A stretch of DNA of 64,000 nt, from assembly GCF_030384885.1 (NCBI RefSeq), contig NZ_CP128613.1. One strand, given 5' to 3'. The position numbers were made by a program, and so were the translations under genes. Of this stretch, positions 12,041 to 62,001 are shown one piece after another. The notes under the pieces were generated by a model, which worked only from the letters and a program-made list of their open reading frames with translations, was not told the origin of the DNA and ran no database searches. The DNA comes from Escherichia coli (GTDB taxonomy: Bacteria > Pseudomonadota > Gammaproteobacteria > Enterobacterales > Enterobacteriaceae). The first letter of the stretch is position 1, and each line of letters begins with the position of its first letter.

Positions 12041-12892
12041 TTAAGACTGCTTGGACATCGCAGCAACTTCTGCTGCAAAGTCAGTCTCAACTTTCTCGAT
12101 GCCTTCACCCACTTCGAAGCGGATGAAGCCAGTCACTTCAGCGTTATGCTCTTTCAGCAGCTGACCAACAGTTTTGCTTGGTTCCATAACGAACGGCTGA
12201 CCGGTCAGAGAAACTTCGCCGGTGAATTTCTTCATGCGGCCTTCAACCATTTTCTCTGCGATTTCTTTCGGCTTACCAGACTGCATCGCGATATCCAGCT
12301 GTACCTGGTATTCTTTTTCTACCACTTCAGCGGATACATCTTCTGGTTTGATGAATTCTGGTTTGCTTGCAGCAACGTGCATAGCGATGTGTTTAACCAG
12401 CTCTTCGTCAGCGCCTTTAGCAGCAACCAGAACGCCGATACGCGCACCGTGCTGATAAGAACCCAGAACGTCGCCTTCCAGCGCAGCAACGCGGCGAATG
12501 TTGATGTTTTCACCAATTTTCGCTACCAGCGCAACACGTTCTTCTTCGAACTGTGCTTTCAGAACTTCAACGTCAGTGATTTTGCCAGCAACAGCTGCGT
12601 CCAGAACTTTGTCTGCGAACGCCTGGAAACCAGCGTCTTTTGCAACGAAGTCAGTCTGGCAGTTAACTTCCAGAATGATGCCGTAGTTGCCGTCGATTTT
12701 GGTTTTGATCACGCCGTCAGCAGCAACGTTGCCTGCTTTTTTCGCTGCTTTAATAGCACCGGACTTACGCATGTTTTCGATTGCCAGCTCGATGTCGCCG
12801 TTAGCTTCAGTCAGTGCTTTTTTGCAATCCATCATGCCTGCGCCAGTACGCTCACGCAGCTCTTTTACCAGGGATGCGGTAATTTCAGCCAT
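12041..12892 (-). CDS. tsf: Elongation factor Ts
   Basis: Track ORF 283 aa, [45 protein letters not shown]; downstream of rpsB. Confidence 0.95.
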
Positions 12893-13149
12893 TCTAAAAT
12901 CCTCGGAGATGTGATCTGCCCGGCATTAAACCGCACAGATATAAAAGTGAAAAAGGGGGCCATATGCAGGCCCCCTAACCAAACGTGTACTACCTGGTCT
13001 ATAAGGGCTCTCCCCCTTCATATTTCGCGCCGCAGATGCGTTGTCTTCGCTCGCTCATCCCGGTCACTTACTGATGTAAGTTCCCGGGAATTCTCGAGCT
13101 TGCCGCCTTTCTGCAACTCGAACTATTTTGGGGGAGTTATCAAGCCTTA

Positions 13150-14097
<948 letters not shown>

Positions 14098-44281: not shown

Positions 44282-46711
44282 TCATGAATACTTTTTCGTC
44301 CGTCGCGTCGGTGCGGTATTTGCCGGATCATCCGGCCAGACGTGTTTGGGATAACGCCCTTTCATCTCTTTTTGCACCTCGCGATACGCTCCTTTCCAGA
44401 AGGCGCTCAAATCTCGTGTGATTTGCAGCGGCCTTTGGGCAGGAGAAAGCAACTCCAGCACCAGCGGCACGCGCCCCTGGGCGATCGTCGGATTGGTGGC
44501 CTCGCCAAACATCTCCTGCATTCTCACCGCCAGCGCGGGCGGGTTATCTTCATGGTAACGAATGGCGATCCGGCTTCCCGTCGGCACAGTGTAATGCGCA
44601 GGCAATTCACTATCCAGACGTTGCTGCATCCCCCAATCAAGTAATCCGCGTAGCGCCTGATAAATATCGAGTGATTTCAGGCCGCGTAGCGAATGTACGC
44701 CTGTCATATGCGGCAGGAGCCACGTTTCCAGCGTCGCCAACAAACTTTCATCATCAACCGCTGGCCAGTCATATTCCGGCAACCACTTTGCGGCGCATAA
44801 CAAACGCAAGCGTAGCTGTTCCGCTTCCGCCGTCCAGTTGAGCACGCTTAAACCTTTATCACGAATGCCGTTAAGCATCGCCTGATGCAACTCGTCTTCC
44901 GAGGGTTTCGCCAGCGGCTGCACTTTCACCGTCAAATGACCGATTTGCAGCCGACGCCACGCTTTCAGCGTACCTTGCGCGTCATCCCACTCCACAGTGT
45001 CAGACTGCTGTACCAACTGCGGACAGCGTTGTACTAATTCATCGATATCGACCGGTAGCGCCAGTAAAATCCGCGCATCCGGCGAGGCGCTGCCCTGCAA
45101 TAATAACGGTGCGATCAACCATTCGTGGCGGCTGAGCGCATCATCGGCATCGAGCATTGCCCCCATGCCGTTTGCCAGTTGATAGCGCCCCTCTTGCCCA
45201 CGGCGGCGAGCGATGCGATCGGCAAACGCTCCGGCAAGTAACGGTGCGATAAGCGAACTGTCTGCCTCACCGCCGCGTACGTTTAAGCGCTTTAACAGTT
45301 GCTGGCTACGTTGCTGCCAGGCAGGTTGATTGCGCGAAAACGCCACGCCCAGATCGATATTGCCCATCCGTGGTGGCTCTTCGAGAATAGCGGCAATTTT
45401 TGCAGCGGTAGCAGCTTCGTCGTCGCTCTTTGCGCTCACCAGCATTGCCGCTAAACGCGGATCGTTACCCAGCGTCGCCATTTTCTGCCCTTTCGTGCTT
45501 AGCCGTTCACCGTCCATCGCCCCCAGCATCCGCAACAGGCGTTTCGCGGCCTGTAAATTCACGGCTGGCGGTTGATCCAGCCAGCTCATCTGCGTCGGAT
45601 CGCTGCATCCCCATTGCAGTAATTCCATCAGCAAACCGGAGAGATCGCTTTGTAATATTTCTGGTTCACTTTGCGCGGAGGCGCGTTCTGCTTGTTCTTT
45701 GGCGATTAAATGTAAACAGATCCCCGGCTCCAGACGTCCGGCACGCCCGGCGCGTTGCGTCATTGATGCCTGGCTAATGCGTTGGGTAATCAGCCGCGTT
45801 AGCCCCGTGCGCGGATCAAAGCGCGCCACACGTTCCTGAGCACAATCCACCACCAGACGAATACCTTCGATGGTTAAACTGGTTTCAGCAATATTGGTTG
45901 CCAGCACCACTTTGCGCATCCCTTCTGGTGCCGGAAGGATCGCTTTTCGCTGATCGTTCAGCGACAACGCGCCATACAGCGGGCAGAGCAACACATCACT
46001 ACCGATGCGCGAAGCCAGTTGTTCCTGAACGCGCTGAATTTCTCCGACACCAGGTAAAAATAACAGTAATGAGCCGCTTTCCTGATGCAGCAATTCGGCG
46101 GTGGCAACCGCCACGGCTTCATCAAAACGCTGATGAGCGAGCAGCGGTAAATATCGGCGTTCAACCGGAAATGAGCGCCCTTCTGAGATGACGACGGGCG
46201 CTTCTGGCAGCATCTGCTGCAAGCGGTCATTGTCCAGCGTAGCCGACATAATCAGTAGTTTAAGGTCATCACGCAGACCTTGTTGCACATCGAGTAACAG
46301 CGCCAACGCCAGATCCGCCTGCAAGCTGCGCTCATGAAACTCATCGAGGATCACCAATCCAACGCCGCTCAGTTCAGGGTCACGCTGGATCATGCGCGTC
46401 AACACGCCTTCGGTAACTACTTCCAGGCGAGTATTTGCCCCGACACAGTTTTGCGCGCGCATCCGGTAGCCTACCGTATCACCTGTTTTTTCGTTAAGCA
46501 GTTCCGCCAGTCGTTGCGCAACGTTACGCGCCGCCAGGCGACGCGGCTCCAGCAGGATAATTTTTCCGTTAATGCCGGGATGCGCCAGCAGTTGCAGCGG
46601 CAGCCAGGTTGATTTCCCGGCCCCGGTCGGCGCACTTAATAACACCTGCGGTGCACCATCGAGGGCAGCAAGTAACTCAGGTAAGACGGCGGCAACGGGC
46701 AACGACGACAC
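44282..46711 (-). CDS. hrpB: ATP-dependent RNA helicase HrpB (DEAH-box); probable GTG start
   Basis: Track ORF 44282..46756; GAGKST Walker A and DEFH box; start placed at in-frame GTG giving MSSLPVAAVLPELL (809 aa as I recall). Confidence 0.88.
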   Translation of the reverse strand: MSSLPVAAVLPELLAALDGAPQVLLSAPTGAGKSTWLPLQLLAHPGINGKIILLEPRRLAARNVAQRLAELLNEKTGDTVGYRMRAQNCVGANTRLEVVTEGVLTRMIQRDPELSGVGLVILDEFHERSLQADLALALLLDVQQGLRDDLKLLIMSATLDNDRLQQMLPEAPVVISEGRSFPVERRYLPLLAHQRFDEAVAVATAELLHQESGSLLLFLPGVGEIQRVQEQLASRIGSDVLLCPLYGALSLNDQRKAILPAPEGMRKVVLATNIAETSLTIEGIRLVVDCAQERVARFDPRTGLTRLITQRISQASMTQRAGRAGRLEPGICLHLIAKEQAERASAQSEPEILQSDLSGLLMELLQWGCSDPTQMSWLDQPPAVNLQAAKRLLRMLGAMDGERLSTKGQKMATLGNDPRLAAMLVSAKSDDEAATAAKIAAILEEPPRMGNIDLGVAFSRNQPAWQQRSQQLLKRLNVRGGEADSSLIAPLLAGAFADRIARRRGQEGRYQLANGMGAMLDADDALSRHEWLIAPLLLQGSASPDARILLALPVDIDELVQRCPQLVQQSDTVEWDDAQGTLKAWRRLQIGHLTVKVQPLAKPSEDELHQAMLNGIRDKGLSVLNWTAEAEQLRLRLLCAAKWLPEYDWPAVDDESLLATLETWLLPHMTGVHSLRGLKSLDIYQALRGLLDWGMQQRLDSELPAHYTVPTGSRIAIRYHEDNPPALAVRMQEMFGEATNPTIAQGRVPLVLELLSPAQRPLQITRDLSAFWKGAYREVQKEMKGRYPKHVWPDDPANTAPTRRTKKYS

Positions 46712-46784
46712 AAAACGCTCCAGAGGGTTAACATTCTTCGCGCCACATTGTAGCATCGCGGTAATGCATAACCGAGTACCTCAC

Positions 46785-48034
<1,250 letters not shown>

Positions 48035-48211
48035 TAGAGTAAGTAACTGGTTAATTTACATTCTGGTCGCGTGCGCAAATACGCTTTTCCTCACACAGTT
48101 GTCAAGTGTTACGTTTAGATAATTGCTATCCGGAAAAGCTTCTGCTATTTATAGCGGCCTCATTTTTCCCCCGAACATGGGGATCGATAGTGCGTGTTAA
48201 GGAGAAGCAAC

Positions 48212-48667
48212 ATGCAAGAAGGGCAAAACCGTAAAACATCGTCCCTGAGTATTCTCGCCATCGCTGGGGTGGAGCCATATCAGGAGAAGCCGGGCGAAGA
48301 GTATATGAACGAAGCCCAGCTGGCGCACTTCCGTCGTATTCTGGAAGCATGGCGTAATCAACTCAGGGATGAAGTCGATCGCACCGTTACACATATGCAG
48401 GATGAAGCAGCCAACTTCCCGGATCCGGTAGACCGTGCAGCCCAGGAAGAAGAGTTCAGCCTCGAACTGCGTAACCGCGATCGCGAGCGTAAGCTGATCA
48501 AAAAGATCGAGAAAACGCTGAAAAAAGTGGAAGACGAAGATTTCGGCTACTGCGAATCTTGCGGCGTTGAAATTGGTATTCGTCGTCTGGAAGCGCGCCC
48601 GACAGCCGATCTGTGCATCGACTGCAAAACGCTGGCTGAAATTCGCGAAAAACAGATGGCTGGCTAA
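48212..48667 (+). CDS. dksA: RNA polymerase-binding transcription factor DksA
   Basis: Track ORF 48194..48667; start placed at ATG preceded by AAGGAGAAG, giving [26 protein letters not shown] (151 aa); C4 zinc finger [25 protein letters not shown]. Confidence 0.95.
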
Positions 48668-48695
48668 TTACAGCCGTTCCATCACGTTTACCACA

Positions 48696-48723
48696 GGCGG
48701 GAAATGCTCCCGCCTTATTTTTT
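48696..48723 (+). terminator. Intrinsic terminator downstream of dksA, overlapping the gluQ start
   Basis: GGCGGGA-aatgc-TCCCGCC perfect 7-bp stem followed by TTATTTTTTG, read directly. Confidence 0.65.
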
Positions 48724-49630
48724 GTTCAACGAGATGACAGACACACACTATATTGGTCGCTTCGCCCCCTCTCCTTCTGGCGAGCTTCATTTTGGCTCTC
48801 TGATTGCCGCGCTTGGAAGCTTTCTACAGGCTCGCGCCCGGCAAGGTCGCTGGCTTGTTCGCATTGAAGATATCGATCCGCCTCGTGAAGTTCCCGGTGC
48901 CGCAGAGACCATCCTGCGCCAGCTGGAACATTACGGTCTACACTGGGACGGCGATGTTCTCTGGCAATCGCAACGTCACGACGCCTATCGCGAAGCACTC
49001 GCATGGTTACATGAGCAAGGGTTAAGTTATTACTGCACCTGCACGCGCGCACGTATTCAAAGCATTGGCGGTATTTACGACGGTCATTGCCGGGAGTTGC
49101 ATCATGGGCCAGAAAACGCTGCTGTACGTATTCGCCAGCAGCATCCGGTCACCCAGTTTACTGACCAGCTGCGCGGCATTATTCATGCCGACCAAAAACT
49201 GGCGCGGGAAGATTTTATTATTCATCGCCGTGATGGTTTGTTTGCCTATAACCTGGCGGTGGTGGTGGATGATCACTTCCAGGGCGTGAGCGAAATTGTC
49301 CGCGGGGCAGATTTGATCGAACCCACGGTGCGCCAAATCTCGCTGTACCAGCTTTTTGGCTGGCAGGTGCCAGATTACATTCATTTGCCACTGGCACTTA
49401 ATCCACAAGGCGCTAAACTTTCCAAGCAGAATCATGCGCCTGCGTTGCCGAAAGGCGATCCACGCCCGGTACTAATCGCGGCACTTCAATTTCTGGGTCA
49501 ACAGGCAGAAGCACACTGGCAGGATTTCAGCGTCGAGCAAATTCTCCAGTCAGCCGTCACAAACTGGACGCTGACTACCATTCCTGAGTCGGCAATTGTA
49601 AATTCAACATTCTCAAATGCCTCATGCTGA
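48704..49630 (+). CDS. gluQ: Glutamyl-Q tRNA(Asp) synthetase (truncated GluRS paralogue)
   Basis: Track ORF 308 aa; [17 protein letters not shown] class-I aminoacyl-tRNA synthetase HIGH-type motif; start may instead be the ATG at 48734 (MTDTHYIGR). Confidence 0.85.
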
Positions 49631-49689
49631 GCTATGATTAGCCGCTATTTTTTTGTCCTGAATGATGTTTGACACTACCGAGGTGTATT

Positions 49690-51087
49690 ATTTTTACCCG
49701 AGTCGCTAATTTTTGCCGCAAGGTGCTAAGCCGCGAGGAGAGCGAAGCTGAACAGGCAGTCGCCCGTCCACAGGTGACGGTGATCCCGCGTGAGCAACAT
49801 GCTATCTCTCGCAAAGATATCAGTGAAAATGCCCTGAAGGTAATGTACAGGCTCAATAAAGCGGGATACGAAGCCTGGCTGGTTGGCGGCGGCGTGCGCG
49901 ACCTGTTACTTGGCAAAAAGCCGAAAGATTTTGACGTGACCACTAACGCCACGCCAGAGCAAGTGCGCAAACTGTTCCGTAACTGCCGCCTGGTAGGTCG
50001 CCGTTTCCGTCTTGCTCATGTCATGTTTGGCCCAGAGATTATCGAAGTCGCAACCTTCCGTGGACACCACGAAGGTAACGTCAGCGACCGTACGACCTCC
50101 CAACGCGGGCAAAACGGCATGTTGCTGCGCGACAACATTTTCGGTTCCATCGAAGAAGACGCCCAGCGCCGCGATTTCACCATCAATAGCCTGTATTACA
50201 GCGTGGCGGATTTTACGGTCCGCGATTACGTTGGTGGCATGAAGGATCTGAAAGACGGCGTTATCCGTCTGATTGGTAACCCGGAAACGCGCTACCGTGA
50301 AGATCCGGTACGTATGCTGCGCGCGGTTCGTTTTGCCGCCAAATTGGACATGCGCATCAGCCCGGAAACCGCAGAACCGATCCCACGCCTGGCAACCTTG
50401 CTAAACGATATTCCTCCGGCGCGTTTGTTTGAAGAATCTCTGAAACTGTTGCAAGCGGGCTACGGTTACGAAACTTATAAACTGCTGTGTGAATACCATC
50501 TGTTCCAGCCGCTGTTCCCGACCATTACCCGCTACTTTACGGAAAATGGTGACAGTCCAATGGAGCGGATCATTGAGCAGGTGCTGAAGAATACCGATAC
50601 GCGTATCCATAACGATATGCGCGTGAACCCGGCGTTCCTGTTTGCCGCCATGTTCTGGTACCCACTGCTGGAGACAGCACAGAAGATCGCCCAGGAAAGT
50701 GGCCTGACCTATCACGACGCTTTCGCGCTGGCAATGAACGATGTGTTAGACGAAGCCTGCCGTTCACTGGCGATCCCGAAACGTCTGACGACGTTAACCC
50801 GCGATATCTGGCAGTTGCAGTTGCGCATGTCCCGCCGTCAGGGTAAACGCGCATGGAAATTACTCGAACATCCGAAGTTCCGCGCCGCTTATGACCTGCT
50901 GGCACTGCGTGCTGAAGTAGAACGCAACGCCGAGCTACAACGTCTGGCGAAATGGTGGGGTGAGTTCCAGGTTTCTGCGCCGCCAGACCAAAAAGGGATG
51001 CTTAACGAACTGGATGAAGAACCGTCACCGCGTCGTCGTACTCGTCGCCCGCGCAGACGTGCGCCGCGCCGTGAGGGCACCGCATGA
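49690..51087 (+). CDS. pcnB: Poly(A) polymerase I; start assigned to an AUU codon
   Basis: Track ORF 49669..51087; E. coli pcnB is known to initiate at AUU, so start placed at the ATT codon preceding [12 protein letters not shown] (465 aa); [17 protein letters not shown] nucleotidyltransferase motif. Confidence 0.85.
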
Positions 51088-51563
51088 CAGTGGCGTATAT
51101 TGCCATCGGCAGCAATCTGGCCTCTCCGCTGGAGCAGGTCAATGCTGCCCTGAAGGCAATAGATGACATTCCTGAAAGCCGCATTCTTGCCGTTTCTTCG
51201 TTTTACCGCACCCCACCGCTGGGGCCGCAAGATCAACCCGATTACTTAAACGCAGCCGTGGCGCTGGAAACCTCTCTTACAGCAGAAGAGCTCCTCAACC
51301 ACACACAGCGTATTGAGCTGCAGCAAGGTCGCGTCCGCAAAGCTGAACGCTGGGGACCGCGCACGCTCGATCTTGATATCATGTTGTTTGGTAATGAAAC
51401 CATTAATACCGAACGACTCACCGTCCCGCATTACGATATGAAGAATCGCGGCTTTATGCTGTGGCCGCTGTTTGAAATCGCGCCGAAGCTGGTCTTTCCT
51501 GATGGGACAGGATTAGACAACTTATTACGAATAAATAAGTTCGCTGAATTAAATAAATGGTAA
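51084..51563 (+). CDS. folK: 6-hydroxymethyl-7,8-dihydropterin pyrophosphokinase
   Basis: Track ORF 159 aa [26 protein letters not shown]; overlaps pcnB stop. Confidence 0.95.
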
Positions 51564-51886
51564 GGCAATAGTTTTGCAAATATAAATAAATTCCGAAAAT
51601 AGCTTTCACGCAATTACAATAATCCCTCCTCTAAGTTATAACCGTAATAATATAATATTCACCCCACTCAACAGCCCCACCCATATACACCATTATCATC
51701 ACATTAGATATTTAGTTTTACTTAAAAATGAATTAAGTGGATATTTAATTTTAAATATGCACAATATCCCCCCTAATGATGAACAGATGTTACATTCGGT
51801 AAATCCAAGCATCCATCATTAACAAACCATTCACCTTTTCTTTATCGAGACTTCCTGCTTGAGGAGGTCTGATTAAAGTTAAACTC
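51564..51886 (+). promoter_or_regulatory. AT-rich upstream region of the yad fimbrial operon
   Basis: About 320 bp non-coding, very AT-rich with A/T tracts, immediately 5' of yadN; typical of silenced fimbrial promoters; no specific elements assigned. Confidence 0.35.
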
Positions 51887-51910
51887 ATGGAATATGATTC
51901 AAGGATTTTT

Positions 51911-52495
51911 ATGTCTAAAAAATTAGGTTTTGCGCTCTCTGGTCTTATGCTGGCAATGGTTGCAGGTTCCGCTTCTGCTGATATGGACGGTGGTCAGTTA
52001 AATATCAGTGGTCTGGTTGTTGATAATACCTGTGAAACCCGCGTAGACGGCGGTAACAAAGATGGCCTGATCCTGCTGCAAACTGCAACCGTTGGAGAAA
52101 TCTCTGAGGGTGTGCTGGACACTACCGTTGGTGCTAAAGCTAAACCATTCAGCATTACTGTTGACTGTAGTAAAGCTAATCCGGCACCAGGCAGCACAGC
52201 AAAAATGACTTTCGGTTCAGTCTTCTTTGGTAACAGTAAAGGAACGCTGAATAATGATATGTCAATTAATACGCCATCGGACGGTGTTAATATTGCTCTG
52301 CACAATATCGAAGGTTCTGCTATCAAACAGGTTAAAATCAACAACCCTGGCGATATCTATTCCAAAGCACTGGATGCAACTTCTAAATCCGCAACTTATG
52401 ACTTTAAAGCATCTTATGTTCGTGCAGATGCGAGCCAACCAGGCACTGCTGGTTATGTGAAAACTAACACTGCATATACCGTTACTTATCAGTAA
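51911..52495 (+). CDS. yadN: Fimbrial major subunit YadN
   Basis: Track ORF 51887..52495; start placed at [24 protein letters not shown]-terminal ...TAYTVTYQ. Confidence 0.85.
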
Positions 52496-52591
52496 GCATT
52501 TCCATCCATATTCATGAATTGAATACATACAGGGAATAATATTGATATTTCATACTACTCCCTGTTTTTTTAACTCTGCCAGGAATGGTTT

Positions 52592-53332
52592 ATGTTTTTC
52601 AACACTAAACATACAGCAGCATTATGCTTCGCAACCTGTGTAGCTTTTAGCTCATCAGCTATAGCAGATATCGTAATTTCCGGTACACGCGTAATCTATA
52701 AAAGCGACCAAAAAAGTGTCAGCGTTCGTCTGGAAAATAAAGGCAATAACCCATTACTTGTTCAAAGTTGGCTGGATACCGGCGATGACAATGCTGAGCC
52801 TGGCAGTATTACCGTCCCCTTTACTGCGACTCCGCCCGTATCACGCATTGATGCAAAACGCGGCCAAACTATCAAACTGATGTACACCGCCAGTAGCGTC
52901 CTGCCAAAAGATAGAGAAAGTGTGTTCTGGTTTAACGTACTGGAAGTTCCTCCAAAACCAGATGCCGCAACAGCTACAAATCAAAGCCTGCTGCAGTTGG
53001 CATTTCGTACCCGTATCAAATTGTTTTATCGCCCTGAAGGGTTAAAGGGCAATCCGTCTGACGCGCCGTTAGCACTTAAATGGTCATGGGCAACTGCGGG
53101 AGGCCAAACAGCTTTGCAAGTAACAAACCCTACGCCTTATTACGTCTCATTTAGCAGTGGTGATTTAGAAACCAGCAGCAAGCGCTATCCACTCGACGTA
53201 AAAATGATTGCGCCATTCAGTAACGATGTCATCAAAGTGAACGGTATGAGTGGCAAATCAAGCTCTGCAAAAGTTCATTTCTACGCCATTAATGATTTTG
53301 GCGGAGCCATAGAAGGCAATGCAACTCTGTAA
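52592..53332 (+). CDS. yadV: Fimbrial periplasmic chaperone (EcpD/YadV)
   Basis: Track ORF 246 aa; PapD-like (ISGTRVIYKSDQKSVSVRLEN). Confidence 0.85.
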   Translation: MFFNTKHTAALCFATCVAFSSSAIADIVISGTRVIYKSDQKSVSVRLENKGNNPLLVQSWLDTGDDNAEPGSITVPFTATPPVSRIDAKRGQTIKLMYTASSVLPKDRESVFWFNVLEVPPKPDAATATNQSLLQLAFRTRIKLFYRPEGLKGNPSDAPLALKWSWATAGGQTALQVTNPTPYYVSFSSGDLETSSKRYPLDVKMIAPFSNDVIKVNGMSGKSSSAKVHFYAINDFGGAIEGNATL

Positions 53333-53367
53333 TCAGGCAAGGGATATTACGCAGCAGGAAGCGAAAC

Positions 53368-55965
53368 GTGCAAAAAATAACAATAATTCATCCTCATAAC
53401 CTCACGCAGATCGCTACGCTTTGTGCGCTGCTTTATAGTTCCTTTAGCATAAGTGCTGAACACGTTGAATATGACCATACCTTCCTGATGGGGCGTGATG
53501 CTTCAAATATCGACCTTAGTCGGTACAGTGAAGGTAACCCTACGCTACCCGGTATTTACGACGTAAATGTTTATGTTAATGATCAACCCGTCATTAACCA
53601 AAGTATCCCTTTTGTCGTTATTGACGGGAAGAAAAATGCCCAGGCTTGTATCACCCAAAAGAATATATTGCAGTTTCACATTACCCAACCAGATATTGAT
53701 AGTGAAAATGCGGTACTACTCGAGCGAGATGAAGAGCTCGGTGATTGCCTCAATCTAACCGAAATTATCCCGCAATCATCTGTGCGTTATGATGTGAATG
53801 ATCAACGACTGGATATTGATGTCCCACAGGCATGGGTCATGAAAAATTACCAAAACTATGTTGATCCGTCATTATGGGAAAATGGTATTAATGCTGCCAT
53901 GCTTTCATATAACGTTAATGGTTATCACAGTGAAAGCCCTGGCAGAAAAAATGACAGTATTTATGCCTCATTTAATGGTGGTGTGAATTTAGGCGCATGG
54001 CGAATGCGCGCTTCAGGTAACTACAACTGGATGAACGATTCTGGTAGCGATTACAACTTTCAGAATCGGTATCTGCAGCGCGATATTGCATCACTACGTT
54101 CGCAATTAATTATTGGTGAATCCTATACCACCGGGGAAACTTTTGATTCCGTCAGCATTCGTGGCGTTCGCTTATACAGCGACAGTCGGATGCTTCCCCC
54201 TGCATTAGCCAGTTTTGCTCCGGTTATTCATGGTGTCGCCAACACTAACGCAAAAGTGACTATCACTCAGAGCGGTTATAAGATCTATGAAACAACAGTA
54301 CCACCAGGCGCATTTACTATTGATGATCTCAGTCCATCAGGCTATGGCAGCGACCTCATTGTCACAATTGAAGAGGCTGATGGCTCAAAGCGGACTTTCT
54401 CTCAGCCATTTTCATCGGTAGTGCAAATGCTACGACCTGGCGTTGGTCGCTGGGATATTAGTGGTGGTCAGGTATTAAAGGACGATATTCAGGATGAACC
54501 TAATTTATTTCAGGCCAGCTACTACTATGGCCTAAACAACTACCTGACCGCGTATACAGGTATTCAGCTCACCGATAATAACTATACTGCCGGATTACTG
54601 GGACTTGGTTTAAATACGTCCCTGGGTGCTTTTTCTTTCGATGTCACTCACTCCAATGTCCGCATCCCTGAAGATAAAACATACCAGGGGCAGAGCTATC
54701 GTTTATCGTGGAACAAATTATTCGAAGATACCAGTACGTCGCTAAATATCGCGGCCTACCGCTATTCAACGCAGAATTATCTTGGTCTTAATGACGCTTT
54801 AACACTCATTGATGAAGTGAAGCATCCAGAGCAAGAGCTTGAACCGCAATCCATGCGGAATTACTCGCGCATGAAAAATCAGGTTACGGTCAGTATTAAC
54901 CAACCGCTGAAATTTGAGAAAAAAGATTACGGCTCCTTTTATCTTTCAGGAAGCTGGTCCGACTATTGGGCTTCCGGCCAAAATCAAAGCAATTATTCCA
55001 TTGGCTACAGCAATAGTGCCTCCTGGGGCAGCTATAGCATTAGTGCTCAGCGTTCCTGGAATGAAGATGGTGAAACCGATGATAGTATCTATCTCAGTTT
55101 CACCATTCCAATTGAAAAACTCCTGGGGACAGAACACCGTGATTCAGGTTTCCAGAATATTGACACTCAGCTAAACAGCGATTTTAAAGGTAATAATCAA
55201 CTAAATATCAGTAGCAGTGGTTACAACGATAACAATCGCATCAGTTACAGCGTGAATACTGGCTATACGATGAATAAATCCACCGATGATTTAAGTTATA
55301 TCGGGGGTTATGCCAGTTATGAATCCCCATGGGGAACATTGGCCGGTTCGGTTTCCGCAAGTAGTGATAATAGCCGTCAGTTTTCGCTCAATACCGACGG
55401 GGGTTTTGTGCTACACAGTGGAGGCCTCACATTCAGTAACGACAGCTTTAGTGATTCCGACACTCTGGCAGTGGTTCAGGCCCCCGGAGCAAAAGGCGCC
55501 CGTATCAACTACGGTAATAGCACTGTAGATCGCTGGGGCTATGGCGTAACCAGCGCCCTGTCGCCATATCATGAAAACCGCATCGCTCTGGATATTAACG
55601 ATCTTGAGAACGATGTTGAATTGAAAAGTACCAGTACTGTTGCCGTACCGCGTCAGGGCTCTGTCATCTTCGCTGGTTTTGAAACGGTACAGGGGCAATC
55701 AGCGATTATGAATATTAAACGTAGCGACGGTCGTAACATTCCATTTGCTGCGGATATTTATGATGAGCAAGGCAATAATATTGGAAATGTCGGCCAGGGC
55801 GGGCAAGCTTTTGTACGTGGTATCAGTCAACAGGGTAATATCCAGATTAAATGGCTCGAAGCAGGTAAGCCCGTAAATTGCCTGGCCCATTATCAACAAA
55901 ACGCAGAAGCAGAAAAGATCGCACAAACGATTATCATCAATGGAATTAATTGTCAGATTCAGTAA
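53368..55965 (+). CDS. htrE: Fimbrial usher HtrE
   Basis: Track ORF 865 aa; usher-family size and composition; operon position. Confidence 0.9.
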   Translation: MQKITIIHPHNLTQIATLCALLYSSFSISAEHVEYDHTFLMGRDASNIDLSRYSEGNPTLPGIYDVNVYVNDQPVINQSIPFVVIDGKKNAQACITQKNILQFHITQPDIDSENAVLLERDEELGDCLNLTEIIPQSSVRYDVNDQRLDIDVPQAWVMKNYQNYVDPSLWENGINAAMLSYNVNGYHSESPGRKNDSIYASFNGGVNLGAWRMRASGNYNWMNDSGSDYNFQNRYLQRDIASLRSQLIIGESYTTGETFDSVSIRGVRLYSDSRMLPPALASFAPVIHGVANTNAKVTITQSGYKIYETTVPPGAFTIDDLSPSGYGSDLIVTIEEADGSKRTFSQPFSSVVQMLRPGVGRWDISGGQVLKDDIQDEPNLFQASYYYGLNNYLTAYTGIQLTDNNYTAGLLGLGLNTSLGAFSFDVTHSNVRIPEDKTYQGQSYRLSWNKLFEDTSTSLNIAAYRYSTQNYLGLNDALTLIDEVKHPEQELEPQSMRNYSRMKNQVTVSINQPLKFEKKDYGSFYLSGSWSDYWASGQNQSNYSIGYSNSASWGSYSISAQRSWNEDGETDDSIYLSFTIPIEKLLGTEHRDSGFQNIDTQLNSDFKGNNQLNISSSGYNDNNRISYSVNTGYTMNKSTDDLSYIGGYASYESPWGTLAGSVSASSDNSRQFSLNTDGGFVLHSGGLTFSNDSFSDSDTLAVVQAPGAKGARINYGNSTVDRWGYGVTSALSPYHENRIALDINDLENDVELKSTSTVAVPRQGSVIFAGFETVQGQSAIMNIKRSDGRNIPFAADIYDEQGNNIGNVGQGGQAFVRGISQQGNIQIKWLEAGKPVNCLAHYQQNAEAEKIAQTIIINGINCQIQ

Positions 55966-55980
55966 CCACAAGGGCTCCAC

Positions 55981-56556
55981 ATGATAAAAATGACACCATA
56001 TAAATTGACAATACTGATGGGTATATTATTTTCACCTTCAGTATTTGCTACAGATATTAATGTTGATTTCACCGCAACGGTGAAGGCGACAACCTGTAAT
56101 ATTACTCTCACTGCACTGAATGGCTCAAGTGTTACAGATGATGGTAACGATAATTACATACTACGTATACCTAATATGGGGTTGGATAAAATAGTTAATA
56201 AAACAGCCGAAGCCCAGGCAGACTTTAAACTGATCGCCAGTGGTTGTAGCGGTGGCATCAGCTGGATTGATACAACGCTGTCAGGGAATAAGTCTGGCAG
56301 CTCCCCAAAATTGATAGCGCCATTATCATCAGACACATCCTCAACAACCAGCTATATTGGTATGGGAATTAAAAAAATAAATACTGATGATTCTACATTT
56401 CTGACCCCTAACAGCGCAGAGAAAATTCGCTGGAGCCTGACAGAAATCAATACAGACGGTCTCTCAATGACCGTTGCATTGCGTGAAACAGGTACAGGTC
56501 AAGGCATACCAGGTAATTTTCGTGCTAAGGCAACTTTTAATTTCACCTATCAATAA
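55981..56556 (+). CDS. yadM: Fimbrial minor subunit YadM
   Basis: Track ORF 191 aa, signal peptide, C-terminal ...ATFNFTYQ; exact start uncertain. Confidence 0.8.
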   Translation: MIKMTPYKLTILMGILFSPSVFATDINVDFTATVKATTCNITLTALNGSSVTDDGNDNYILRIPNMGLDKIVNKTAEAQADFKLIASGCSGGISWIDTTLSGNKSGSSPKLIAPLSSDTSSTTSYIGMGIKKINTDDSTFLTPNSAEKIRWSLTEINTDGLSMTVALRETGTGQGIPGNFRAKATFNFTYQ

Positions 56557-56570
56557 CAAGGATGACAATA

Positions 56571-57176
56571 ATGATGTATAAAAAATTACGTTATGGATTA
56601 TCCGTAAGTATGATTCTTGCTGCATCCCAGTTAGTCGCGCCATCCTATGCGGCTACCGACAGTATCGGTCTGACAGTCGTTACCACTGTTGAGACTGGGA
56701 CTTGCGATGCACAACTGGTTAATGATAGCAATCAACAAATTTCTGCGGTGGATTTTGGCGATGTTTATATTTCTGAAATCGATAAAAAATTAAAAATTAA
56801 GACTTTCAAATTACAGTTTAAAAACTGCGCGGGTATTCCCGGGAAAAAGGCTCTGATAAACCTGACCAAACGCGCAACTTGCGAAGGGACCAGTAATGAC
56901 GGAGCAGGTTTTGCAAATGGTTCTACAGGTACCGGCAAAGCAAGCGCCGTTGTGGTAGAAGTCTGGAACACCACTGTACCTGCAACGGGAAGTGCGGCTC
57001 CATTTAGCTGTGCAGCACCGGCAAATAAAGAGGTAATTATTGCCTCCGCCACAGGTAATAACGTAGTGGACTATCCGATGAGCGCCCGTCTGGTGGTTGA
57101 TAAAGATAAAACTGTCAGCGACGTTACCGCTGGCACATTTTCTGCACCAGCAACATTTACCGTGACTTACAACTAA
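56571..57176 (+). CDS. yadL: Fimbrial minor subunit YadL
   Basis: Track ORF 56562..57176; start at MMYKKLRYGLSV assumed; C-terminal ...ATFTVTYN. Confidence 0.78.
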   Translation: MMYKKLRYGLSVSMILAASQLVAPSYAATDSIGLTVVTTVETGTCDAQLVNDSNQQISAVDFGDVYISEIDKKLKIKTFKLQFKNCAGIPGKKALINLTKRATCEGTSNDGAGFANGSTGTGKASAVVVEVWNTTVPATGSAAPFSCAAPANKEVIIASATGNNVVDYPMSARLVVDKDKTVSDVTAGTFSAPATFTVTYN

Positions 57177-57201
57177 CTGGTCGCCATATCAGGTACTTAC
57201 T

Positions 57202-57798
57202 ATGCATCCCACCCAACGTAAAATGACGAAGAAAACAGGTTTATTTCTGTCGTTAATATTATCAATGATACACCCCGTCATGGCGGGAATGGATATTGAT
57301 ATGACGGCTAATGTCAAAAATAGCACCTGCAAAAGCGGAATTAGCAATCAAGGTAATATCGATCTTGGCGTCGTCGGTGTGGGATATTTTGCCGGTAATA
57401 CCTCTGCTGAAGACCATCAACCTAGCGGAAAAGAATTTACCATCACGGTGACAGACTGTGCATTTCAGGGAACAGGAGATGTACTCAATCAGTTGCATAT
57501 TGAATTCCGCCCTCTTAGCGGTGTAATGGCAACAGGCTCTAGGCAAATATTTAATAATGAGAACGTCTCGGGGGCCAGTAATGTTGGCGTCGTTATCTTT
57601 TCTATCCAGGACCCGGCAAACACCTTCAATGTTCTGAATACAGCTGGCATTTCTCGTTCAATTTATCCGGTGATGTCATCAGAGATGAATAACTCATCCT
57701 GGAAATTTTATACCCGAATGCAAAAAGTTAACCCAGCACTTAACATTACATCCGGTCAAGTCAAAAGTACTGTACTGGTCGACGTCTACTATGAGTAA
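57202..57798 (+). CDS. yadK: Fimbrial minor subunit YadK
   Basis: Track ORF 198 aa; C-terminal ...VLVDVYYE. Confidence 0.8.
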   Translation: MHPTQRKMTKKTGLFLSLILSMIHPVMAGMDIDMTANVKNSTCKSGISNQGNIDLGVVGVGYFAGNTSAEDHQPSGKEFTITVTDCAFQGTGDVLNQLHIEFRPLSGVMATGSRQIFNNENVSGASNVGVVIFSIQDPANTFNVLNTAGISRSIYPVMSSEMNNSSWKFYTRMQKVNPALNITSGQVKSTVLVDVYYE

Positions 57799-57822: not shown

Positions 57823-59103
57823 ATGTTAACGCTAAAAATCGTATATAAAACGCAAGCATTTTTAAAGTGCTGCATTCTGCTCTTATTATCTCTTTCTAGT
57901 ATTTCTTTCGCGGCTAACACTGGTTTTGTTGTAGGAAATCCCCCCCCATCGCCCACTAGTCTGGCTGGGCCCTCAGGTAATGGAAAAGCAACTTTCAGAT
58001 ACAACACTATCGCAAACAATTTAGTTTTTTATAAACCTACAGGTTCAGGCATTAACCAAACGGGAGTAAAACTATACTGGGCACAATTAGATAGTGCACT
58101 TGGTGGTGTAGGAAATGGAGTTATTTATTGTAACACCAGTAATAATGCCAGTGGTGGACCGATGACACTTACAAATGCAATGGTTGACTCTGGTTTCACT
58201 TACAATGGTCATAAATTATTTAAAACATCTGTTCCAGGTCTCTATTACACATTGTCAATTTTCAACGTGTGGTCAGCTTGGGTAAAATCTAATATCAGCG
58301 CAAATGGTCTTTATATTGGAGATGCTGCTAAGCAATACTTTTCATTCTATGTAGCTGACCCGGACCTTCAGAGAAACGGATGTAACAAGGCAAACTCAAT
58401 GAGTAAGTATTGGGCAATTGGTGGTGTAATGCAGAGCCTCACTGTCGAATTTTATACTGACTCCTCTTTCGATCCTGTACAAAACCAAAAGGTTCAATTG
58501 TTACGTACTAGCGACTATCTTTATGCTTTTCATGCTGAAGGCGCTGGCGTTGGCATTAATGAACATAGTCATTTTCTTTTTATAGATTTTGATCTAACTA
58601 ATATCACAATTACATTACCTACATGCTTCACCTCCGTTTTGAGTGGTTCGGCTGTCAGTGGCTCAACAGTAAAAATGGGTGAATATACTTCCCAACAAAT
58701 AAAAAATGGGGCAACCCCAGTTCCTTTTGATATTAACTTACAAAACTGCATCCGTGTTCGTAATATTGAAACAAAACTCGTCTCCACAAAAATCGGCACA
58801 GAAAACAAGAAACTTCTGGGTAATACGCTCACAGGTAATGATGCGGCAAAAGGAGTTGGTGTATTAATTGAAGGGTTAGCCACCAACAAAAGTGTAAAAA
58901 TGATACTGGAACCCAATGTTTCAACATCTGTTTATAAAGATTACGAAACGGAAAATGATACCACTGATGGGATTTACCCAAATCAGGGTAACGGTACTTC
59001 ACAACCTCTTCATTTCCAGGCGACCTTACAACAAGACGGAAATATTCCTATAGAGTCAGGGGAGTTAAAAGCCACCAGTACTTTTCAGGTGACCTATCCC
59101 TGA
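57823..59103 (+). CDS. yadC: Fimbrial tip adhesin YadC (two-domain)
   Basis: Track ORF 426 aa; last gene of the yad operon; C-terminal ...[11 protein letters not shown]-terminal segment appears to differ from the K-12 allele as I recall it. Confidence 0.78.
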
Positions 59104-59214
59104 TAGCAACGTTGCACCGCCTGATAATGGCGGTGCAACAATAGAGAAATCATTGCCCCCACAAATGTGACTGATAAAATGCAAACAGCACAACATCATT
59201 TATCAGGACACGTT

Positions 59215-60009
59215 ATGAAACCGACCACCATTGCTTCATTGCAGAAATGCAAACAGGACAAAAAACGCTTCGCGACAATAACCGCTTACGACTACAGCTT
59301 CGCTAAATTGTTTGCCGAAGAAGGACTTAACGTGATGTTGGTTGGCGATTCGCTGGGCATGACTGTTCAGGGGCACGACTCCACACTCCCGGTAACCGTT
59401 CAAGATATCGCCTACCACACTGCTGCCGTACGTCGTGGCGCACCAAATTGCCTGCTGCTGGCCGACCTGCCGTTTATGGCGTATTCCACCCCGGAACAGG
59501 CCTTTGAAAATGCCGCCACAGTAATGCGTGCCGGAGCCAATATGGTCAAAATTGAAGGCGGCGCATGGTTGGTTGAGACGGTACGAATGCTGACTGAACG
59601 CGCAGTTCCGGTGTGTGGTCATTTAGGTTTAACCCCACAGTCAGTGAATATATTTGGCGGCTACAAAGTACAAGGGCGTGGCGATGAAGCGGGCGATCAA
59701 CTGCTCAGCGATGCGTTAGCCTTAGAAGCCGCTGGTGCACAGTTGCTGGTGCTGGAATGCGTGCCGGTTGAACTGGCGAAACGCATTACCGAAGCGCTGG
59801 CGATTCCGGTAATCGGTATTGGCGCGGGCAACGTCACCGACGGGCAAATCCTCGTGATGCACGACGCGTTCGGTATTACCGGCGGCCATATCCCTAAATT
59901 TGCAAAAAATTTCCTTGCTGAAGCGGGCGACATCCGCGCAGCAGTGCGTCAGTATATAGCTGAAGTGGAGTCCGGTGTTTATCCGGGCGAAGAACACAGT
60001 TTCCATTAA
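59215..60009 (+). CDS. panB: 3-methyl-2-oxobutanoate hydroxymethyltransferase
   Basis: Track ORF 59167..60009; start placed at [27 protein letters not shown] (264 aa). Confidence 0.93.
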
Positions 60010-60020
60010 GGAGTCACGTT

Positions 60021-60872
60021 GTGTTAATTATCGAAACCCTGCCGTTGCTGCGTCAGCAAATTCGCCGCCTGCGAATGGAAGGCAAACGCGTGGCGCTGGT
60101 GCCTACTATGGGTAACCTGCACGATGGTCATATGAAGCTGGTCGACGAAGCCAAAGCCCGCGCCGATGTGGTCGTCGTCAGTATTTTCGTTAACCCGATG
60201 CAGTTTGACCGCCCGGAAGATCTGGCTCGTTATCCACGAACCTTGCAGGAAGACTGCGAGAAGCTAAACAAACGTAAAGTGGATCTGGTTTTCGCTCCCT
60301 CGGTAAAAGAGATCTATCCGAACGGTACAGAAACCCACACCTATGTCGATGTTCCAGGCCTTTCCACCATGCTGGAAGGTGCCAGCCGTCCAGGACATTT
60401 TCGCGGCGTATCGACCATCGTCAGCAAACTGTTCAACCTGGTCCAGCCGGACATCGCCTGCTTCGGTGAAAAGGATTTTCAGCAACTGGCACTGATCCGC
60501 AAAATGGTTGCCGATATGGGCTTTGATATTGAGATTGTCGGAGTGCCGATTATGCGCGCGAAAGACGGTCTGGCGCTCAGTTCCCGTAACGGCTATCTGA
60601 CGGCGGAACAACGTAAAATTGCGCCGGGTCTGTACAAGGTCTTAAGTTCAATTGCCGACAAATTGCAGGCTGGCGAACGGGATCTCGATGAAATTATTGC
60701 TATTGCCGGGCAAGAACTGAATGAAAAAGGTTTCCGTTCCGATGATATTCAGATTCGCGATGCCGACACCTTGCTGGAAATCGCTGAAAACAGCAAACGA
60801 GCGGTGATTCTGGTAGCCGCCTGGCTTGGCGATGCTCGCCTGATCGACAACAAAATCGTCGAACTGGCGTAA
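60021..60872 (+). CDS. panC: Pantothenate synthetase
   Basis: Track ORF 283 aa; [37 protein letters not shown]. Confidence 0.95.
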
Positions 60873-60891
60873 TACTTATACTCTAAATAAT

Positions 60892-61005
60892 TCAAGTTGC
60901 AGGAAGGCGGCAAGCGAGTGAATCCCCAGGAGCTTACATAAGTAAGTGACTGGGGTGAGCGAACGCAGACGCAGCACATGCAACTTGAAGTATGACGAGT
61001 ATAAC
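60892..61005. repeat. ERIC (IRU) enterobacterial repetitive intergenic consensus element
   Basis: GTGAATCCCCAGGAGCTTACATAAGTAAGTGACTGGGGTGAGCGAACGCAGACGCAGCACATGCAACTTGAAGTATGACGAG closely matches the ERIC consensus; intergenic between convergent panC and rpnC. Confidence 0.75.
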
Positions 61006-61092
61006 TGGCGCTACGGCTGATGGCGCCAATTATTAATTTGCCCCACATCATGGCGATGACGTCTGTAAGCGATTATTCATATCGCAGGCAAT

Positions 61093-62001
61093 TTAGTTAA
61101 TCAGCTTATCAAGCTCAGCAAGAGGTAAATTTGCCATCTCTGCAACGTCTTCCCGAGACATTCCTTTACTCAGAAGACGCAGGGCGAATTCTTGCCTTTC
61201 CTCCTGTCTTCCCAGCTGAATCCCCTTCTCAATCCCCTTCTCAATTCCCTTCTCTTCAAACCACTGCGCCAACGTCATCATAGACTCCCCTCCCGTTTCC
61301 CTGTCTCTCACCACACCATAAAACAAATCCGCTTGTTCAGTATGACCGCGTTGCAGCATATAGTTTTGCATGGCAACTAACTGACTTCCGCTAGTGTACC
61401 CTTCGTCAATCAGCGTGACCAGTTGCTCCAGCAATAACATTAAGTCGCGCTGGCGAATATGTTTTTGCAGCAGTTCGAGAATCGCAATCCGCCGATGTTG
61501 CATGATTTCGTCATCCGGTGTGATAGTGATATCCACCAGCGGGAAAGGACTGTTATAGACGCGTCGCGCCAGCTCCGGCGAGTAAAACATATCAAACCAG
61601 CACATTGAGAGTGGATAAGGCGTGGCCTCGCCCTGATAAAACAAAATCGGCACCACCAGCGGCAGCTTATCGTGGTCAGCCTCCAGATGCCGGTGCATGG
61701 CGGCAATAGAATAACGCATCATACGAAACGCCATTTTTTTGTCCGGCTTGCTTTGGTGTTCAATCACAACATGTAGATAGCCCGTATTACCCTGCATTTG
61801 CACGGAATAGAGCACGTCAGTGCTGTGCCCTTTCAGGCTTTCTTCAATAAAACTCCCCGACTCAAGATGCAGCGTGTCGAGATCACACAGTTCGCGTAGC
61901 TCCGCTGGCAAATGGATATCCAGAAAGTCGCGAGCCGTTTCCGCGTGCATTAAAAATTGTTTAAACACCGCATCATGCGGTGTGGTACTCGGTGCATCCA
62001 T
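61093..62001 (-). CDS. rpnC: Rpn-family recombination-promoting nuclease / transposase_31-like protein (YadD/RpnC)
   Basis: Track ORF 302 aa MDAPSTTPHDAVFKQFLMHAETARDFLDIHLPAELRELCDLDTLHLESGSFIEE; YhgA/Rpn family features; no flanking inverted repeats seen. Confidence 0.85.
   Translation of the reverse strand: MDAPSTTPHDAVFKQFLMHAETARDFLDIHLPAELRELCDLDTLHLESGSFIEESLKGHSTDVLYSVQMQGNTGYLHVVIEHQSKPDKKMAFRMMRYSIAAMHRHLEADHDKLPLVVPILFYQGEATPYPLSMCWFDMFYSPELARRVYNSPFPLVDITITPDDEIMQHRRIAILELLQKHIRQRDLMLLLEQLVTLIDEGYTSGSQLVAMQNYMLQRGHTEQADLFYGVVRDRETGGESMMTLAQWFEEKGIEKGIEKGIQLGRQEERQEFALRLLSKGMSREDVAEMANLPLAELDKLIN
61219..61254. repeat. In-frame 12-bp x3 tandem repeat inside rpnC (encodes EKGI-EKGI-EKGI)
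   Basis: AATCCCCTTCTC AATCCCCTTCTC AATTCCCTTCTC read directly on the + strand. Confidence 0.7.

Follow-up and report, generated by a model that had tools for sequence, protein, structure and literature searches.

An ERIC/IRU element directly after panC, probably part of the panC 3'UTR, in a divergent lineage filed as Escherichia coli

ERIC elements, also called IRU or RU-1, have been known since 1990-91 through the work of Sharples and Lloyd in 1990 and of Hulton, Higgins and Sharp in 1991, followed by that of Wilson and Sharp in 2006. Both their high sequence conservation and their presence or absence between strains are established features of the family. Insertions of about 70 bp inside ERIC are reportedly the subject of a paper by Sharp from 1997 (Mol Microbiol, 'Insertions within ERIC sequences') and were reportedly taken up again by Wilson and Sharp in 2006. 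De Gregorio et al., in 2005 (J Bacteriol 187:7945), are said to have found that ERICs adjacent to stop codons are preferentially 'B'-oriented and destabilizing, and that 'A'-oriented copies may stabilize or do nothing. In the published descriptions ERIC is a 127-bp miniature inverted-repeat element with terminal repeats, a target duplication and a terminal 5'-TA-3', and the same reviews state that a transposase moving ERIC-like elements is not known (PMC2229807; PMC3184786). E. coli carries about 20 ERICs (PMC2267715), and 14 extra ERIC loci have been reported in non-K-12 strains (PMC10969869). In Yersinia, according to three of these sources (PMC2229807; PMC10969869; PMC3184786), an ERIC that is transcribed together with a gene at its 3' end reduces the upstream transcript by way of an exposed RNase E site in the 3' terminal repeat, with orientation being crucial to this effect. 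For the Correia elements, another group of repeated palindromes, it is RNase III that has been implicated (PMC10969869).

We analysed a stretch of 64,000 nucleotides from Escherichia coli (assembly GCF_030384885.1, contig NZ_CP128613.1), hereafter the window, in which an element lies between panC and rpnC, two genes named from the 100% identical RefSeq record of E. coli 2013C-4282. Judged by its sequence, this element is an ordinary, full-length ERIC/IRU (RU-1) copy and hence of an already known type. It has the family's length (127 bp) and its 44-nt core without a change, is bounded by long, imperfect terminal inverted repeats, ends in TA on either side with a duplication of that TA, and forms a single long hairpin; it is also, like other members, intergenic, probably transcribed, one of several copies in the genome and polymorphic for presence between strains. 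Nothing essential distinguishes it from ERIC/IRU, the differences being two Watson-Crick positions that are usually G-U and an arm sequence of an Escherichia sub-type. With the REP/BIME and Correia/NEMIS elements, which are likewise transcribed palindromic repeats and which alter the stability of mRNAs, it shares the general character of a repeated palindrome, located in a 3'UTR or between cistrons, whose RNA folds into a hairpin, whereas the sequences and sizes are unrelated and different nucleases have been implicated. A literature search for ERIC together with panC or yadD returned only unrelated papers. In light of the comparisons given below, we consider it very probable that an ERIC inserted after the panC stop codon, that it is probably co-transcribed as a near-neutral 3'UTR hairpin, and that it represents an old insertion fixed in its lineage and unconnected to rpnC. 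The features on which this reading rests are collected in Table 1.

Table 1. Features at the panC-rpnC site, in window coordinates, and comparison loci that carry a module in the right arm
Feature	Coordinates	Strand	Basis
panC, pantoate--beta-alanine ligase; stop codon 60870-60872	60021..60872	+	ORF; RefSeq annotation of 100%-identical record
Left terminal inverted repeat, basal helices, contains AU-rich CTAAATAATTC	60876..60901	+	26-nt arms, 85% complementary
Complete ERIC/IRU element, 127 bp including TA at both ends	60877..61003	+	cross-species HMM, conservation drop at ends, empty alleles
Left copy of duplicated TA target	60877..60878	.	empty versus filled allele; K-12 alignment overlap
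Conserved ERIC core, ERIC1R and ERIC2 primer binding sites, apical hairpin	60918..60961	+	44/44 match
Site of the 71-bp module in the long allele found in other strains; unoccupied in the window	60920..60921	.	alignments A1 and A3
Right terminal inverted repeat	60979..61004	+	26-nt arm; helices 1 and 2 paired across copies
Right copy of duplicated TA target	61002..61003	.	empty versus filled allele; K-12 alignment overlap
Terminator-like hairpin 61006-61028 followed by ATTATTAATT, likely panC terminator	61006..61038	+	terminator-pattern scan
rpnC, recombination-promoting nuclease RpnC	61093..62001	-	ORF; RefSeq annotation of 100%-identical record
Comparison loci with right-arm module: L018, L020, L023, L024, L029, L032, L074, L079, L097, L100, L102, L106, L107, L115-L117			

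A 44-nt query in which the reverse complement of ERIC1R is followed by ERIC2, two primers whose sequences were confirmed in the literature (the two co-occur in 233 papers), matches 60918-60961 on the + strand with 0 mismatches, while 0 of 100 dinucleotide shuffles match; the + strand of the element accordingly corresponds to the conventional consensus orientation (GTGAATCCCCAGG...). For comparison, 120 ERIC loci from other genomes were taken among the matches listed in a scan for exact ERIC2. They cover Citrobacter, Serratia, Yersinia, Pectobacterium, Dickeya, Klebsiella, Enterobacter, Buttiauxella, Kosakonia, other Escherichia and more, and exact ERIC2 matches were found in more than 20 genera among the matches listed. 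An nhmmer profile built from 117 other-species copies, likewise among the matches listed and with the window excluded, recovers 60866-61008 with E=1e-43. The window copy is identical to the cross-species majority consensus of these listed copies at 113 of 127 positions (89%), and to an E. albertii ERIC at an unrelated locus at 125 of 127. The arm sequence between the outer stems and the core forms an Escherichia sub-type of its own. A first-pass annotation, made from the letters alone, had recognized a near-consensus ERIC/IRU between panC and rpnC; the core match, the profile, the consensus and the E. albertii copy all bear this out, and the poor alignment to the ERIC consensus that it had named as grounds for giving up the identification did not occur. 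It also described the two genes as convergent, which agrees with their strands, and the element as filling most of the space between them, of which it takes 127 of 220 bases (58%). The limits that it proposed, 60892-61005, have to be moved. Column conservation in the comparison copies is 60-90% inside the element and 20-30% outside, with steps exactly at 60877 and 61003, and because this drop coincides with the breakpoints against the empty alleles and K-12, the limits are placed at these two positions; the earlier start thus cut 15 nt off the left terminal repeat, and the earlier end was 2 nt too far. The element should be annotated as a repeat region, and its importance beyond annotation is little. 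A 100-aa ORF on the - strand (60749-61051), which crosses the ERIC and the 3' end of panC and coincides with no RefSeq annotation, is a repeat artefact and not suitable for annotation as a gene.

Copy number in E. coli has a median of 6 megablast-detectable places per genome, and the window itself contains another ERIC, more diverged than the first, at 13013-13143 on the - strand (nhmmer E=3.5e-30). This copy was missed by the exact-core search because its core has more than 3 mismatches. It begins a few bases past the stop codon of a 307-aa ORF (13150-14073), which by its C-terminus we take to be ribosomal protein S2 (rpsB), and precedes a 283-aa ORF (12041-12892) assigned by position to tsf, which would place this ERIC between rpsB and tsf. 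It is oriented towards its own upstream gene in the way that the panC copy is towards panC.

Comparison of occupied and unoccupied alleles shows that the ERIC inserted at a TA 4 nt downstream of the panC stop codon, with duplication of that TA. Empty alleles from other E. coli read GCG-TAA-TACT-TA-ACTGGCGC, with TACT-TA-ACTGG as the core of the empty site; the filled allele of the window reads TACT-TA[TACTC...GAGTA]TA-ACTGGCGC, in which the right TA is again followed by ACTGG. The filled allele minus the empty one is exactly the element plus one TA duplication. Consistent with this, blastn against K-12 gives two segments, one ending at 60878 and the other restarting at 61002, that have 2 nt of K-12 in common. 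An 8-bp repeat, AACTGGCG (60862-60869 and 61003-61010), was considered as a target duplication bracketing a 141-bp insert and rejected, because both of its copies are already present in the empty alleles (GAACTGGCGTAATACTTAACTGGCG). No transposase with ends matching ERIC was found within the window.

The element was described earlier as an imperfect palindrome, and its inverted repeats fit this description: the outer arms, 60876-60901 and 60979-61004, are 26 nt long and 85% complementary, and an inner pair lies at 60924-60937 and 60942-60955. For the + strand RNA the predicted fold is one long hairpin with a free energy of -55.8 kcal/mol (z=-6.2; 0 of 200 shuffles as good), and the - strand reaches -49.4 kcal/mol (z=-5.2). 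When the structure of the window copy is projected onto 37 distinct full-length ERIC copies from many genera, 98% of the pairing in the outer helices 1 and 2 is kept, and at 6 pairs both partners have changed. For helices 1, 2 and 6 (outer plus apical) taken together the figures are 98-99% paired and 8 such double changes; because the search pattern fixed the right half of the apical helix, that helix is no independent evidence. Slid controls are all 30-39% paired. Two small middle helices occur only in the Escherichia sub-type, and several of the conserved G-U pairs are possible only when the + strand is read. Pairs 18-111 and 21-108 are Watson-Crick in the window copy and G-U in most copies, and the hairpin of the window copy would therefore be unusually stable and regular.

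The element is separated from the panC stop codon by 4 nt, and its end from a terminator-like hairpin at 61006-61028 by 2 nt. This hairpin with its U-rich tail is the only terminator-like site in 60700-61300, a call that is a simple consensus match with 1 found against 0.7 expected. The hairpin is nearly invariant in five alleles, and the sequence beyond it is highly variable through substitutions and indels. The ERIC hairpin itself does not have the pattern of an intrinsic terminator, being followed by ACTGGCGCTACGG without a U-tract, and was not called by the scan; it can be ruled out as the terminator, and it is the separate hairpin that fits the pattern. In the minimum-free-energy fold of the 186-nt 3' region the ERIC and the terminator-like hairpins stand side by side, which answers the proposal of the first-pass annotation that the structure of the panC 3'UTR be predicted. 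Given the 4-nt gap and the terminator-like hairpin downstream, the element is probably part of the panC 3'UTR and co-transcribed with the gene. Since transcription meets no possible stop signal after the panC stop codon and ahead of the element, and the element's own hairpin has no U-tract, every panC transcript would be expected to read through it and end about 30 nt beyond, with the hairpin at 61006-61028 most likely terminating panBC transcription. The panC mRNA of this lineage would then carry a 127-nt 3'UTR hairpin stacked directly on the terminator stem. Describing the element as intergenic thus holds as far as its place between panC and rpnC is concerned, and can be refined in that it lies upstream of the likely panC terminator and would be a 3'UTR element.

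Variable presence among strains, which the first-pass annotation expected of ERICs in general and proposed to check by BLASTN, is found at this very site. Among 5,426 complete E. coli genomes, 427 are filled and about 92%, including K-12, are empty. The filled genomes fall into 409, O157:H7 and O55:H7 among them, with a long allele in which the ERIC contains a 71-bp internal module, and exactly 18 with the plain 127-bp form aligning in one piece. In a housekeeping segment at a distance of 12-15 kb from the element (46000-49000; hrpB-sfsA-thpR-dksA-gluQRS), exactly these 18 genomes reach 99.2% identity or more to the window, all others being at most 97.1% identical and mostly about 96%. The plain element is fixed in the window's lineage and absent outside it among the 5,426 genomes. 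By the same segment the window belongs to a divergent lineage that is filed under E. coli and differs by about 4% from typical members of the species, and going by this divergence the lineage may be one of the 'cryptic clades' of Escherichia. The site with its three states (empty, 127 bp and 198 bp) is a convenient lineage marker. The long allele occurs also in Escherichia sp. E1V33, a separate species representative, at the same TA and in the same orientation. It agrees with the window copy in locus, orientation and TA, and differs in the module, which the window copy lacks between 60920 and 60921. The simplest history is a single old insertion that gained the module afterwards; alternatively, the module may have been lost from a long ancestor. 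Between the window and either O157 or E1V33 the element differs at 2 of 127 positions and the flanks at about 7% (6.9%; Fisher p=0.014 and 0.010), and against the 4% housekeeping background the element's divergence is not significantly low (P=0.12). The low divergence relative to the flanks is in keeping with the high conservation known for ERIC, and could reflect selection on the sequence rather than neutrality.

Examination of the 71-bp module reveals three small hairpins, ACAAATTCGTCAGGAACGAATTTG, CCAGCCGCAGGCTGG and GAGAGACATGGATGTCTCTC. The module occurs once per genome in 612 genomes, and about 200 of these therefore carry it at another locus. The long alleles of the panC-rpnC site in the comparison set are L002 (module at about 580-651), L003, L109 and L127, and no target duplication is evident around the module in long alleles. 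In 16 of the 120 ERICs from other genera (among the matches listed), a related module of about 70 nt follows immediately on GAGCG in the right arm, which is the mirror image of the position in the long alleles. In the first hairpin of the right-arm module there are compensatory changes, namely AAATCTGCC/GCAGATTT, AAATCGGC/GCCGATTT, AAATCAGC/GCTGATTT and AAATCCGC/GCGGATTT. Together these changes suggest that the structure of the module is conserved, which points to a nested element or an RNA module. It is conceivable, though rather unlikely in our judgement, that the panC-rpnC site records the turnover of such a second, nested element, with a module that is separately mobile or functional as RNA and targets a fixed position in ERIC. 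If that were the case, the window copy would be either an unoccupied target or the product of a precise excision, and the three alleles would give panBC mRNAs three different natural 3' ends.

Returning to the reading of the window copy as a near-neutral 3'UTR hairpin, its likely effect on the mRNA depends on orientation. Among the other-genome ERICs that lie no more than about 10 nt from a stop codon, counting only ORFs of 100 codons or more (among the matches listed), the gene reads into the opposite end in 17 and is arranged as in the panC copy in 2. With three orthologous loci collapsed to one and the window copy counted, this gives 15 of 18 (binomial p=0.008). The panC copy thus appears to be in the minority orientation among stop-adjacent ERICs, and the count overturns an initial suggestion, based on the TAA triplets at its left end, that it has the orientation preferred after stop codons. 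From this count and the preference reportedly found by De Gregorio et al., the panC copy would correspond to the published 'A' orientation. In the majority orientation the AU-rich run AAUUAUUUA, which is the plausible RNase E site, lies in the 3' arm, where opening of the hairpin by a ribosome would expose it; in the panC mRNA it lies in the 5' arm beside the stop codon.

These observations bear on the possibility that the element is an RNase E-dependent destabilizer of panC mRNA, like the 'B-oriented' ERICs of Yersinia enterocolitica. The panC copy resembles the latter in belonging to the same family, lying directly after a stop codon and being expected to be co-transcribed with the upstream gene. 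In the model in question, the terminating ribosome melts the basal part of the hairpin, an RNase E site in the 3' arm becomes accessible, and the upstream mRNA is degraded; an element that begins 4 nt past the panC stop codon should indeed have its basal helix disturbed by the terminating ribosome, and the mechanism is reviewed for ERICs at Yersinia gene 3' ends (PMC2229807; PMC10969869; PMC3184786). However, the panC copy has the opposite orientation, the one in the minority of 2 against 17 in other genomes (among the matches listed), and the unmasking of an RNase E site is probably not transferable to it. Its AU-rich run, CUAAAUAAUUC, is in the 5' arm, and the 3' arm, UGCAACUUGAAGUAUGACGAGUAUA, is a poorer RNase E candidate. 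Because the terminating ribosome would cover the AU-rich stretch in the 5' arm, instead of leaving it exposed in the 3' arm, RNase E-triggered destabilization is not expected. The Watson-Crick pairs at 18-111 and 21-108, which would make the hairpin unusually stable, further argue against it. We regard both the destabilizing role and the melting model behind it as quite improbable here. The effect on the mRNA stability of flanking genes that the first-pass annotation mentioned is documented in Yersinia, where it depends on orientation, and the panC copy appears to be the other way round. As a near-neutral hairpin the element would be at most a modest barrier to 3'-exonucleases, and its net effect on the expression of the pantothenate genes is probably small or neutral. 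Strains with no difference other than this 3'UTR insertion would offer a natural experiment on how ERIC orientation affects mRNA stability in E. coli, an effect that the reviews cited here report only for Yersinia.

A still less probable reading, which we rate as very improbable, has the element act on the other strand, either by forming the end of read-through transcripts from rpnC or by giving rise to an antisense RNA or small RNA like the Vibrio AS5 RNA. The - strand does fold well, as noted above, and read in that direction the element has the orientation preferred after stop codons, with the AU-rich run in the 3' arm. Two weak promoter-like sites lie upstream on that strand (61100-61072 and 61056-61029), but these are simple matches at 9 of 12 consensus positions. 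The rpnC stop codon is 89 nt from the element, on the far side of the conserved terminator-like hairpin, which speaks against this reading. Rfam contains no ERIC family, and its sole match to the element, below threshold, is the Vibrio antisense RNA family V_AS5 (RF02818; 49.8 bits, E=6.6e-9). The alignment runs end to end, from model position 1 to 129 over window 60876-60999, with the outer stems in common; nevertheless, the score is about half of the gathering score of 96 and the core differs, and the panC element does not belong to this family. The simplest account of the match is that V_AS5 is an ERIC too. Copies of ERIC in Vibrio seem to have been the source of the family, in which case ERIC would be represented in Rfam only indirectly.

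The first-pass annotation had remarked on the neighbouring rpnC as notable, with the reservation that it may be coincidental, and this reservation is supported by three negative results: rpnC adjoins the empty sites too, including that of K-12 (about 92% of genomes); RpnC homologues are found at 2 of the 120 ERIC loci of other genomes (1.0 Mb; among the matches listed), one being the orthologous site and the other lying 5 kb from its ERIC; and a search with the ERIC profile found no ERIC-terminus-like sequence flanking rpnC in the window. We therefore reject as barely credible a link in which the element is a substrate or recombination site of RpnC or is mobilized by Rpn (transposase_31-like) proteins, for which speak the physical adjacency, the lack of a known transposase for ERIC (PMC2229807; PMC3184786) and the nature of the panC-rpnC spacer as an insertion and indel hot spot in other strains, with a transposase or ISNCY transposase annotated in H10 and H119, and against which, besides these three results, speaks the occurrence of the approximately 20 ERICs of E. 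coli (PMC2267715) at unrelated loci, including the putative rpsB-tsf spacer in the window.

Several other observations were made on the surroundings of the element. No part of the locus varies more than the segment 61029-61250, which comprises the spacer past the terminator-like hairpin and the 3' end of rpnC; alleles differ there by a 14-bp indel and by numerous substitutions, and in H10, H37 and H119 the spacer beyond the hairpin contains transposase, ISNCY transposase or pseudogene fragments. The position of the rpnC stop codon shifts between strains, with annotated genes of 885-921 bp, and the C-terminus of RpnC contains a GIEKGIEKGI repeat. In Serratia proteamaculans (L106, 1150-1400) an independent ERIC with a right-arm module follows the panC stop codon of that species at a distance of about 50 nt, in the same orientation as in the window; this recurrence of ERIC at panC may be a coincidence. 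Relative to K-12, the window is 93.6% identical over 45316-51600, 78.8% over 51883-57759 (yad fimbrial genes) and 83.4% over 58207-60878 (yadC-panB-panC), and between E. coli strains panC varies by 5-8.5% with the PanC protein staying about 99% identical. By these values the pan genes seem to lie at the edge of a hypervariable, probably recombining region.
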